DNA from: a virus
Reading direction: 5' to 3' (one strand)
Virus genome (UHGV): UHGV-1632499
Length of the DNA stretch: 25,341 bases
Made by a program: the position numbers and the translations under genes. Every line of letters starts with the position of its first letter. Position 1 is the first letter of the stretch. Under the pieces are notes generated by a model. That model saw only the letters and a list, made by a program, of their open reading frames with translations. It was not told where the DNA came from and made no database searches. This document shows, piece by piece, positions 464 to 25,341 of the stretch.

Positions 464-493
464 ACAGGTTGGCCCCATATGAGGCCAACCTGT
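464..493. terminator. Perfect 11-bp stem hairpin between convergent Q and the antisense cassette; candidate bidirectional terminator or insulator
   Basis: ACAGGTTGGCC (464-474), 8-nt loop, GGCCAACCTGT (483-493). Sits directly after the Q stop and abuts the stop (493-495) of the minus-strand membrane-protein gene. No canonical U-tract immediately follows on either strand. Confidence 0.35.
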
Positions 494-22243: not shown

Positions 22244-23029
22244 ATGCATCGTATAGACACGAAAACCGCGCAGAAGGATAAGTTCGGCGCGGGTAAGAAC
22301 GGTTTTACCCGTGGTAACCCCCAGACCGGCACACCTGCCACCGATCTGGATGATGACTACTTTGACATGTTGCAGGAAGAACTCTGCAGCGTGGTGGAGG
22401 CATCCGGTGCCAGCCTGGAGAAGGGGCGGCATGACCAGCTGCTTACCGCGCTTCGTGCGCTGCTGTTAAGCCGCAAGAATCCGTTTGGCGATATCAAATC
22501 GGATGGCACTGTGCAAACGGCTCTCGAAAACCTTGGTTTGGGAGAAGGCTCAGCGTTACCCGTTGGTGTGCCTGTTCCGTGGCCTTCAGCCACACCACCA
22601 ACAGGCTGGCTGAAATGCAACGGTGCACCTTTTTCTGCCGAAGAGTACCCAAAACTGGCAAAGGCTTACCCAAAGTTAAAATTACCGGATTTGCGCGGTG
22701 AGTTTATTCGCGGGTGGGATGATGGGCGAGGTGTTGATTCCGCGAGACTGCTACTTTCAAGTCAGGCGGCATCTATCCTTGAACATAACCATGAAATGCA
22801 TGGATGGACAGGGAACCCACTCATGGCTAGAGATGTTTATTCATCCGGTTCATCCGTATTTGCGGTGCAGTTGAGCATTGGCGATGGCGGGTTATTGTAT
22901 TCGTGGAAGGATGGGAGTGGAACAACAAATGACAGTAAACGAATGGATAGAACAAATCATGTCAGTTCCGGCGCCGGTGATGGTAGCCCGCGAAACATTG
23001 CATTTAACTACATTGTGAGGGCTGCATAA
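22244..23029 (+). CDS. Tail fibre protein: constant N-terminal part fused to the currently expressed variable C-terminal segment
   Basis: 261 aa, GGAG RBS. The C-terminal part carries GWLKCNGA...[19 protein letters not shown] and HNHEMHG motifs typical of phage fibre tips. A gix-like crossover site lies inside the gene at 22521-22546. Confidence 0.85.
22521..22546. other. Left recombination site for the serine invertase (hix/gix-like), inside the tail fibre gene
   Basis: CTCTCGAAAACC TT GGTTTGGGAGAA: 12-2-12 layout with the AAAACC/GGTTT core typical of Hin/Gin/Cin/Pin sites. The 15 bp on its inner side (TTGGTTTGGGAGAAG) are repeated in inverted orientation at 24404-24418. Confidence 0.6.
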
Positions 23030-23632
23030 ATGGAACAGGCTATTTTGGGAAAAGACGGTTACGCTTTAAATGATGGGGAAATCATCGTACATAACTATGA
23101 TGGCGAAACGCGGGAATATATTTCCACATCAACTGAATATCTTGCGGTTGGCGTCGGTATCCCGGCATGTTCTTGTTTAGATGCACCAGTTACACATAAA
23201 GCTGGTTATGCAATCTGCCGTTCTGCAGATTTTAACTCATGGGAATATGTGCCAGACCATCGCGGTGAAATCATCTATAGCACCGAAACAGGAGAATCGA
23301 AAGAAATCACAGCTCCGGGTGATTACCCTGATAATACAACCACTATCGCCCCGTTAACGCCATATGATAAATGGGATGGTGAGAAATGGGTGACGGATAC
23401 TGAGGCACAGCATAGTGCCGCAGTAGACGCGGCAGAAGTAAAGCGCCAGTCACTGATTGATGCAGCAATGGCTTCCATTAGTCTGATTCAGCTGAAATTA
23501 CAGGCCGGGCGGAAACTGACGCAGGCAGAAACAACCCGGCTTAACGCTGTGCTGGATTACATTGACGCGGTGGCGGCAACAGATACCAGCACCGCGCCGG
23601 ATGTCATCTGGCCTGAACTGCCGGAGGCGTAG
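23030..23632 (+). CDS. tfa: Tail fibre assembly protein (chaperone for the current fibre variant)
   Basis: 200 aa, start adjacent to the fibre stop, conserved Tfa-type C-terminus (...TSTAPDVIWPELPEA). Confidence 0.85.
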   Translation: MEQAILGKDGYALNDGEIIVHNYDGETREYISTSTEYLAVGVGIPACSCLDAPVTHKAGYAICRSADFNSWEYVPDHRGEIIYSTETGESKEITAPGDYPDNTTTIAPLTPYDKWDGEKWVTDTEAQHSAAVDAAEVKRQSLIDAAMASISLIQLKLQAGRKLTQAETTRLNAVLDYIDAVAATDTSTAPDVIWPELPEA

Positions 23633-24044
23633 GCCATTCAATATCTGGCGCACCGGAAGTATCGACCAGTTCCAGTGCGTCCAGATAATCCAGCCACAAA
23701 TTATATTGCGCCAGTTCCTCACCTTTCAGCCGGCCAATAGCCGCTTTACCAGGCCATTGTTTACTGTTCATATAATCGTTGGCCTGATTAATCAGTTGCT
23801 GCTTTTCCAGTTCGGCTGCAGCAATCTGTTCCTCATGTGTTGGTGGTGGAATTTCAGACCATGCAGGAAAACCATTTTCTCCAGCGATACGGATTTTTCC
23901 TTTCGGCGGTAATCCGGAAAACTCAATATACACTTGCTCATCAACTTCAACAGCATCATCTGGCCATGAGTCAGCTTGAGTGTAATCCTCTTTCATCTCC
24001 AGCGGATAGAAAGAGTTTGTAGTCGCGGAATATATGTAATTCAT
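23604..24044 (-). CDS. tfa: Alternative tail fibre assembly protein (chaperone for the inverted-orientation fibre)
   Basis: 146 aa on the minus strand with the same C-terminal motif (...TSGAPDIEWPTPPAVQAR). GGAGTG RBS. Its 3' end overlaps the + strand tfa by 29 nt. Confidence 0.85.
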   Translation of the reverse strand: MNYIYSATTNSFYPLEMKEDYTQADSWPDDAVEVDEQVYIEFSGLPPKGKIRIAGENGFPAWSEIPPPTHEEQIAAAELEKQQLINQANDYMNSKQWPGKAAIGRLKGEELAQYNLWLDYLDALELVDTSGAPDIEWPTPPAVQAR

Positions 24045-24065
24045 TTTTCACTCCATATAGCTAAA

Positions 24066-24416
24066 TTAACAGCCTAACGCTAAAAATGAAGCGCCGAGGC
24101 CAGGAGTACTGGCTCTGGATATAAATTTAACCGGGTCGGGACTAAAACCTGCACAGGCAATATAACCAACAGCCCCGCTATCTGGTGTGTAGTCTTGTGA
24201 GACCAAAACACGCAGACATCTGTTTGGAAATGCAATCGGGAAATGGGTTACTACATCCTGTGCAATGCCTGGTGCGCCGATTGAGCCCCACTGAAGAATA
24301 AAACCTGATGGTAATTTTTGATATCCAGTACCTGAAACAGAAAGCGTGAAGCTACCCATATCAGGTATCTGATTCGCCCCTGTCCCTACATTCCTTTTAG
24401 CCGCTTCTCCCAAACC
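24066..24416 (-). CDS. Alternative tail fibre variable C-terminal segment; promoterless, expressed only after inversion
   Basis: The minus-strand frame is open from the crossover core to the stop at 24066. After inversion it would continue in frame from the constant fibre part (...NLGLGE shared, then [19 protein letters not shown]...). ORF track lists 24066..24413. Confidence 0.7.
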
Positions 24417-24430
24417 AACCTTTCAAATAT
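24405..24430. other. Right recombination site for the serine invertase (hix/gix-like)
   Basis: Minus-strand reading ATATTTGAAAGG TT GGTTTGGGAGAA; the inner half-site and core match the left site, the outer half-site differs. Confidence 0.55.
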
Positions 24431-24457
24431 TTTTCTGAATCAGGTGATATTTCGCCT

Positions 24458-24484
24458 CTTCTCCTGTTTTTACAACAGGAGAAG
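24458..24484. promoter_or_regulatory. Perfect 27-bp palindrome overlapping the invertase RBS; candidate operator or RBS-occluding hairpin
   Basis: CTTCTCCTGTT TTTAC AACAGGAGAAG: 11-bp perfect arms. The 3' arm contains the AGGAG Shine-Dalgarno, 5 nt before the invertase ATG at 24490. Confidence 0.4.
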
Positions 24485-24489
24485 CACTC

Positions 24490-25053
24490 ATGATTTACGG
24501 GTATGTTCGTGTATCAACAAATCATCAGGATACAGAGTTGCAACGTCTTGCACTTGAGTCAGCTGGCTGTGAGCGAATTTATGAAGAATATGCCAGTGGC
24601 AGAACAGCTAATCGCCCTGTGTTAAAGGAATTAATTTCGGTGATGAAAAGTGGAGATGAGTTGATTGTCTGGAAGCTAGATCGGATAGGGAGAAATGTGC
24701 TACATGCGCTATTGATGTTTCAAAATCTGCACGAAAAAGGCGTTAATTTTCGGAGTATTACAGATGGCGTAGACCTGAAAACAGCAAGTGGTCGCTATAA
24801 TTTCCGTAATATTCTTTCTGCTGCGCAGTATGAATCTGATTTGAATAGCGAGCGAACTTTAGCTGGTTTGGCTATTGCCAGATCCAAAGGCCGGATTGGT
24901 GGGCGTAGACCGAAGTTTAGCGACGAGCAGTGGCAACAGATGGGAGCGCTCATAGCGGCAGGGAAATCACGGCGTTATGTTGCACGTATCTATAACGTTG
25001 GGCTATCAACCCTATATAAACGATTTCCTGTTACTGGCATTCAAACGAAATAA
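24490..25053 (+). CDS. pin: Site-specific serine recombinase, DNA invertase (Pin/Gin/Hin/Cin family)
   Basis: 187 aa with YVRVST (catalytic Ser), VWKLDRIGR, NFRSITD, GRIGGRRPK and a C-terminal helix-turn-helix ending STLYKRF; collinear with Gin/Hin as I recall them. Adjacent to the invertible fibre segment. Confidence 0.95.
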   Translation: MIYGYVRVSTNHQDTELQRLALESAGCERIYEEYASGRTANRPVLKELISVMKSGDELIVWKLDRIGRNVLHALLMFQNLHEKGVNFRSITDGVDLKTASGRYNFRNILSAAQYESDLNSERTLAGLAIARSKGRIGGRRPKFSDEQWQQMGALIAAGKSRRYVARIYNVGLSTLYKRFPVTGIQTK

Positions 25054-25093
25054 TTTAAAAGCAATTTAAAGAGTTATTTGTCTAATGTTGGAA

Positions 25094-25129
25094 GCCGCAG
25101 CCACGTCGTATGCAAGAACGTGCTGCGGC
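25094..25129. terminator. Imperfect hairpin between convergent pin and the dinI-like gene; candidate bidirectional terminator
   Basis: GCCGCAGCCACG ... CGTGCTGCGGC, an imperfect inverted repeat in the intergenic space between convergent genes. No clear U-tract. Confidence 0.3.
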
Positions 25130-25196
25130 TGGCTGGCGAACTTTCGATAGTGCGAGTATTGAATGATTTCCAGCCGTTACCGATTTTACGTGTTAA

Positions 25197-25341
25197 TTAG
25201 TGAACAAACCACTCGTCAGCAGATTCCCAGGTATCTTTCAGAGTCTCCTGAACAAAAGTTTTTGCAGAATCCTTATCTGCGGTGCGTGTAACAGAAAGGC
25301 CATCGTTGCTGGTGGCTTTTACGATCACCTCTACATCGTCA
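25197..25341 (-). CDS. dinI: DinI-family protein (DNA-damage-inducible protein I-like), 3' part only; truncated by the window edge
   Basis: The minus-strand frame ends ...[31 protein letters not shown], matching the DinI C-terminal motif (...ILQETWESADDWFV...) as I recall it. The start lies beyond the window. Confidence 0.7.

Follow-up and report, generated by a model that had tools for sequence, protein, structure and literature searches.

The palindrome that precedes the serine DNA invertase gene in the 25,341-nucleotide viral DNA analysed here (UHGV virus genome UHGV-1632499, referred to as the window) encodes a real hairpin, which probably acts as a trap for the Shine–Dalgarno (SD) sequence of the gene. 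We give a probability of roughly 70% to the reading, drawn from the DNA letters and from modelled folds, that the palindrome acts as RNA and keeps the invertase scarce. The same proposal, an mRNA hairpin that hides the SD and holds the invertase at a low level, had been made in a first-pass annotation of this DNA; it was supported by the folding energies, by the near-invariance of the 5′ arm and by the hairpins of sister clades. What was established directly is the sequence of the palindrome, its predicted stability, how it is conserved, and that sister clades have SD-pairing hairpins as well.

The palindrome is 27 bp long and is made up of two 11-bp arms, CTTCTCCTGTT (24458–24468) and AACAGGAGAAG (24474–24484), complementary at 11 of 11 pairs, and the 5-nt loop TTTAC (24469–24473), just as had been claimed. 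The earlier placing of AGGAG in the 3′ arm, with the arm ending 5 nt before the ATG, was also borne out. AGGAG occupies 24477–24481, 8 nt from the ATG, and the gap CACTC (24485–24489) separates the end of the stem (24484) from the ATG (24490). The span originally assigned to the feature, 24458–24492, was right at its start and too long at its end, since the palindrome stops at 24484 and the remainder is spacer and ATG. Perfect hairpin palindromes (arms ≥11 bp, loops 3–10 nt) were counted in the window and in dinucleotide shuffles of the whole window (n = 300). The window has two (24458–24484 and 464–493), against a mean of 0.037 in the shuffles, only 9 of the 300 having any at all; hence the palindrome is not a chance feature. 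The features are listed in the table.

Table. Features of the invertase leader and of the neighbouring recombination system (window coordinates)
Feature	Position	Strand	Remarks
Left crossover site, CTCTCGAAAACC TT GGTTTGGGAGAA	22521..22546	.	Within tail-fibre gene
Right crossover site, TTCTCCCAAACC AA CCTTTCAAATAT	24405..24430	.	Inverted repeat with 22528–22547
Small upstream stem-loop, AGGUGA / UAUU / UCGCCU	24442..24457	+	MFE and centroid; adjoins main hairpin; evidence modest
5′ arm of main hairpin (anti-SD, CUUCUCCUGUU)	24458..24468	+	Perfect complement of 24474–24484
Loop UUUAC, 5 nt	24469..24473	+	Variable in relatives, stem fixed
3′ arm of main hairpin, holding SD AGGAG (24477–24481)	24474..24484	+	
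Spacer CACUC (24485–24489) and invertase ATG (24490–24492)	24485..24492	+	
Serine DNA invertase gene, 187 aa, PinL-like	24490..25053	+	Pfam Resolvase 2e-36, HTH_7 7e-12

The invertase protein is 99.5% identical to the invertase of phage SKA5, 80% identical to phi80 PinL and about 50% identical to Pin-like proteins, Gin and Cin. The name pin, which the gene had been given, is therefore right as far as an invertase is meant, but the protein is PinL-like and not e14 Pin itself. The invertible segment between the two crossover sites (22534–24417) has, on each strand, a C-terminal tail-fibre part together with an assembly gene. The closest relatives are phage SKA5 (99%), then phi80 pinL, mEp237, HK225 and Citrobacter phage Omnitron. 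In relatives, the sequence is wholly divergent left of the right crossover site and unchanging on the other side, so that the palindrome belongs to the fixed leader of the invertase and not to the invertible DNA. Among 5,426 complete E. coli genomes, about 235 carry a match to at least part of the leader region, and in 91 the match covers 80% or more.

When the hairpin was considered alone, its predicted energy was −14.9 kcal/mol, and forcing the SD open was predicted to cost 14.5–14.9 kcal/mol in contexts of 27, 81, 141 and 261 nt. The 56-nt leader gave z = −6.7 compared with shuffled sequences, and the MFE and centroid folds agreed on the leader hairpin. Folding of the invertase 5′ UTR had been suggested as a check, and a stable, SD-burying hairpin is what it returned. 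The mean unpaired probability over positions −14 to −6 of the invertase start was 0.01, the lowest of the 33 ORF starts in the window. In other species, 59 distant serine-recombinase genes had a median SD accessibility of 0.43, and only one of them fell below 0.05; occlusion of the SD is thus not general to the serine-recombinase family.

The predicted cost of opening the SD was 15.5 kcal/mol at 30 °C, 14.0 kcal/mol at 37 °C and 12.8 kcal/mol at 42 °C. RNA thermometers of the fourU and ROSE types resemble the window hairpin in pairing the SD with a run of pyrimidines within a hairpin of the 5′ UTR. They melt between 30 and 42 °C, whereas the window hairpin is predicted to stay shut at 42 °C, and a thermometer role was rejected on the cost that is still predicted at that temperature.

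The conservation of the hairpin was examined in the PinL-like clade, where more than 130 loci, phi80 pinL included, reduced to 16 distinct leaders. In these, 3 of the 11 columns of the 5′ arm were variable, as against 17 of the 21 leader columns outside the stem (Fisher p = 0.006), and 8 of the 11 stem pairs showed no variation whatsoever. The outermost pair was U-A in 13 leaders and C-G in 3, and one stem pair was broken in each of two single sequences. The loop appeared as UUUAC, UUCAU, UUCAC or UUUAU, all five spacer columns varied, and the third codon positions of the same invertase genes were merely 35–49% identical. An arm that is nearly invariant between variable neighbours, and beside variable third positions, must be under strong selection that is independent of any coding or SD role. 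Covariation within the clade was thin, amounting to two pairs. A covariance model of the leader matched only at invertase starts; built from the PinL-like clade, it found that clade only and did not reach the sister clades.

The small stem-loop immediately upstream of the main hairpin varies in a similar way. Its third pair is CG in 10, UG in 5 and UA in 1 of the 16 leaders, and all four of its loop columns are variable, a modest body of evidence which suggests that the functional RNA extends 5′ of the main hairpin. The 5′ arm of this stem-loop resembles an SD in its own right, and its competing for the anti-SD arm is conceivable. Pairing of CAGGUGA with UCUCCUG, with one mismatch, would give a possible, much weaker alternative fold.

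Leaders from about 330 invertase loci were then compared across clades. The Pin-like clade has an SD-pairing hairpin, AUCAUCUCC/GGGGAUGAU, with a wobble position that is CG in 12 and UG in 11; the Fin/mEpX1-like clade has UUCACCUGAU/AUUGGGUGAA, with two G·U pairs and a variant, CAUC/GAUG, in which both sides are changed within the SD; and Eeyore has GUCACCU/AGGUGAC. Loop lengths in the hairpin-bearing clades were 5, about 13, about 20 and 17 nt. On alignment by MAFFT, the 5′ arms and the T-run that follows them aligned as homologous, and an aligned column across the clades formed a pair that was U-A, U·G or C-G, or A-U. Variable spacing together with G·U pairs favours an RNA helix over a DNA operator of fixed geometry. 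The Fin-like clade yielded one covarying pair; the Pin-like clade yielded none that kept a fixed register. RNAalifold on the cross-clade MAFFT alignment returned no consensus structure, the 3′ arms being out of register because the loop lengths differ. Upstream complementarity to the SD, scored as duplex energy against shuffles, was only moderately significant (17/2000, 9/2000, 51/2000, 83/2000 and 13/2000).

The hairpin is not found throughout the family. The e14 pinE leader of K-12 folded no better than shuffles (z = 0.13), and no SD-pairing hairpin was found for Mu gin, P1/P7 cin or the P88-type and L323-type invertases. Conservation of the palindrome upstream of pin/gin homologues, named as a check in the first-pass annotation, was therefore seen in part. 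It held for the PinL clade with its near-invariant 5′ arm and, in the form of SD-pairing hairpins of their own, for the Pin-like and Fin-like clades and Eeyore; it failed for gin, cin, the P88-type and the L323-type, and the arms of the sister clades differ in sequence.

Some further regularities were seen in these leaders. In every hairpin-bearing clade a T-run follows the anti-SD arm (CTCCTGTTTTT, CTCCGGTTTTT and CACCTGATTTTTTT; loci L006–L009, L093, L094, L097 and L098), and in the leaders of the same loci a GATAAC-like motif recurs a few bases 5′ of that arm. At the second invertase start of locus L037, which has a divergent leader (GGTGGCATCATTCACCACTTTTTT), CACC pairs with an upstream GGTG and not with the SD, and a T-run comes after it; from its letters, this arrangement looks like an intrinsic terminator.

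Several other identities for the region were considered and rejected. An intrinsic terminator, which calls for a G+C-rich stem with a U run after it, was dismissed after a scan of 24000–25341 returned none; the stem is followed by CACUCAUG on the plus strand and AGGCGAAA on the minus strand. A leader peptide was likewise discarded, since a single ORF lies upstream (37 aa, from a GTG at 24444), it lacks an SD, and relatives with GGCGAT have lost its start codon. An Rfam 15 scan of 24300–24650 gave nothing near any gathering threshold, the best match being a miRNA model at 14.6 bits against a threshold of 90. A crossover site of the gix/pix/hix type was defined as two 12-bp half-sites with AAACC-NN-GGTTT around a 2-bp core; the palindrome, with its centre TGTTTTTACAACA and its odd length, was rejected as such a site. 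It had been correctly described as separate from the gix-like crossover sites (22521–22546 and 24405–24430), subject to the qualification that its arms and the outer end of the crossover half-site have the heptamer CTTCTCC in common, the sole stretch shared by the two elements. This heptamer stands at the start of the 5′ arm of the palindrome (24458–24464) and also at the start of the left half of the right crossover site (24404–24410); in other clades the match to the crossover half-site is shorter (6, 5 and 4–5 nt). GGAGAA, the reverse complement of the end of the half-site, is a good SD. The common heptamer, the similar lengths (27 and 26 bp) and GGAGAA hint at a possible origin of the hairpin from a recombination site.

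Trapping of the SD depends on a transcript that carries both arms. A candidate −10 element, AAATAT, lies at 24425–24430 in the right half of the right crossover site, its promoter role being proposed by likeness to GATAAT in the Mu site. A second promoter-like arrangement, TTCAAA-18-GATATT (GATATT at 24446–24451), predicts a start at about 24458, with the whole 5′ arm included. Both candidates place the start at or upstream of 24458, and the PinL-like leader has no −10-like hexamer at 24453–24462 that would start the RNA inside the stem. On the plus strand, no terminator-like site was found from the end of the tail-fibre assembly gene (23632) to the invertase, so read-through RNA would carry the hairpin. 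Taken together, the two candidate −10 elements and an upstream stretch free of terminator-like sites suggest that the transcript includes both arms. The TSS supplement of the E. coli Cappable-seq paper has no entry near e14 pinE.

A weak promoter that overlaps the right crossover site could give rise to such a transcript, as could late tail-fibre transcription running on across the invertible segment. In either case it would fold once the 3′ arm leaves the polymerase, and would do so immediately because the loop is just 5 nt. With AGGAG buried, 30S subunits would rarely bind and very little invertase would be made. Inversion of the tail-fibre segment would then be rare, and the invertase gene would be shielded from strong upstream transcription. 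We infer, then, a transcript that includes the 5′ arm and a reduced translation that sets the inversion rate. Counting against this reading, the block predicted by the folding model is so strong that a route to any invertase synthesis is hard to see.

Control by a leader hairpin that sequesters the ribosome-binding site (RBS) is of a known kind, and in logic it comes closest to the fold-back inhibition of IS10. In IS10 and IS50, an upstream sequence pairs with the RBS of the transposase, and transcription from outside then does not raise the level of the enzyme. These elements are the closest analogue both in logic and in molecular means, namely RBS pairing for a DNA-rearranging enzyme. They differ from the window in the recombinase, a DDE transposase in IS10 and a serine invertase here. 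They also differ in the position of the 5′ partner, which in IS10 lies upstream of the element's own start so that foreign transcripts alone are blocked, whereas the native transcript of the window, as far as its letters tell, apparently has both arms. In the initiation hairpin of the MS2 coat gene the SD lies in the stem, and expression is expected to fall steeply as stability rises; de Smit and van Duin reportedly established the relation between the stability of an RBS hairpin and expression. Compared with RBS hairpins of the MS2 type, the window hairpin, at a predicted −14.9 kcal/mol, stands at the very stable end of the range.

Gin of Mu, Cin of P1/P7 and Hin belong to the same enzyme family and have the same need for very low enzyme. 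Mu also has a −10-like GATAAT in the crossover half adjoining gin, where the window has AAATAT. Mu gin differs in its GUG start and in having no SD-pairing hairpin, and P7 cin in having a weak SD and no hairpin. Genes of the Gin/Cin/Hin type seem to reach low expression by other means. The inverted repeat IR3 of phi80, upstream of pinL (GenBank JX871397, repeat_region 23919–23929 / 23935–23945), is the same element as the window palindrome. The two leaders do not differ at any position between the crossover site and the ATG (100% identity), and both have arms of 11 bp, a loop of 5 nt and a 5-nt gap ahead of the start codon. The phi80 record labels it as an inverted repeat only and states no function, and the adjacent tail-fibre segment of phi80 has decayed to pseudogene fragments. 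The searchable literature gave no description of the hairpin, or of translational control of Pin/Gin-type invertases.

Other explanations of the palindrome were weighed against SD trapping in all transcripts. In an arrangement closer to that of IS10, the native transcript would start in or after the 5′ arm with its SD free, and only read-through RNA would be silenced. The fold-back mechanism was reportedly established for the IS10 and IS50 transposases by Davis, Simons and Kleckner in 1985. A block of about 14 kcal/mol is so complete that a bypass by the native mRNA would make sense, and a plus-strand path free of terminator-like sites between the tail-fibre assembly gene and the invertase would supply the RNA to be silenced. 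In the Fin/mEpX1 clade, moreover, GATAAC abuts the 5′ arm and, if it is a −10 element, would put the start within the arm. The PinL-like clade, however, offers no −10-like hexamer at 24453–24462, the start predicted from GATATT (about 24458) includes the arm, and the RNA-type variation of the stem-loop at 24442–24457 suggests functional RNA further upstream. We consider this arrangement unlikely. It is still harder to assign the 5′ arm no regulatory role, with the SD kept simply as an SD and the arm left as a relic (e.g., a duplicated crossover half-site) or as a stabiliser of the mRNA 5′ end. The heptamer in common with the crossover half-site hints at common descent, several invertase clades manage without a hairpin, and in K-12 pinE the hairpin is a weak one. 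A relic would be eroded with time, but the 5′ arm is much better conserved than synonymous sites or the non-coding columns beside it, and changes in it are compensated; a stabilising 5′ hairpin, for its part, needs no SD inside. Of the explanations considered, this one seemed to us the least probable.

The palindrome might instead work as DNA, either as an operator whose dyad is bound by a dimeric phage repressor or as a non-cleavable pseudo-crossover site bound by the invertase. The perfect 11-bp dyad symmetry in the PinL-like clade has the look of an operator too, the arms start with CTTCTCC like the outer end of the crossover half-site (24404–24410), and 27 bp is close to the 26 bp of the crossover site. 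Against such a role, the arms stand at different distances in different clades (loop lengths 5, about 13, 17 and about 20 nt), and the sister clades have G·T positions in their arms, at which only RNA can pair. The AAACC-NN-GGTTT core is absent, the outer hexamers are 13 bp apart and not 14, and the dyad lies downstream of both candidate −10 elements. Half-sites are not enriched in the 25-kb window, which may not include the immunity region (9 compared with 5.6 ± 2.4 expected), and several of them are SDs of other genes. An operator had been named as the alternative in the first-pass annotation; with arm spacing unconserved across clades, G·T tolerated and no extra half-site copies in the window, it is disfavoured, less firmly so for the PinL-like clade taken by itself, and we regard it as very improbable overall. 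A combination of the two roles, in which the palindrome would be an RNA SD trap and at the same time a DNA pseudo-site bound by the invertase and descended from a crossover site, appears just as doubtful. In that case the CTTCTCC-ended arms would form a non-cleavable site, giving autoregulation or a decoy that tunes synapsis, and the SD and anti-SD would come from the two halves of the ancestral site, because the reverse complement of TTCTCC is GGAGAA.

Tail-fibre inversion switches set the host range of phages and work only if the invertase is kept very scarce. To our knowledge, attention to Gin, Cin and Hin has gone mostly to recombination chemistry and the Fis enhancer, and not to how the level of the enzyme is set. 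If SD trapping holds in the PinL, Pin-like and Fin-like clades, it would offer a simple explanation for low switching rates, and would explain why strong late transcription across the invertible segment gives no runaway inversion. In synthetic circuits, the hairpin could be used as a compact element to hold recombinase levels down. The mechanism itself is conventional, and no general concept of gene control is altered by it.

Some features near the palindrome and elsewhere in the window may be noted. The stretch 24405–24501, covering the crossover site, the leader and the first 12 nt of the CDS, is 100% identical to phi80 and mEp237, while the invertase CDS is just 73.5% identical to that of phi80 (third positions 49%). 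These figures point to a sharp mosaic boundary, or to exchange of the leader as a module. The 5′ coding region at 24498–24626 has strong nucleotide conservation with gin, cin and pin, and matches the annotated cin recombination enhancer of phage P7. A Fis-dependent enhancer is predicted from this likeness and probably lies at about 24508–24575, downstream of the palindrome.

The second perfect palindrome of the window (464–493) has 11-bp arms, ACAGGTTGGCC and GGCCAACCTGT, around the loop CCATATGA. It is placed between the ends of two convergent ORFs, 92–457 on the plus strand and 493–942 on the minus strand, has no T-run on either side and could be a site of processing or a terminator that acts in both directions. 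At 25094–25129 there is a long imperfect hairpin, GCCGCAGCCACGU ... ACGUGCUGCGGC, without a U-run (MFE of the region −31.4 kcal/mol, z = −2.7). It lies between the stop codon of the invertase gene and a convergent DinI-like ORF (25197–25328, minus strand).
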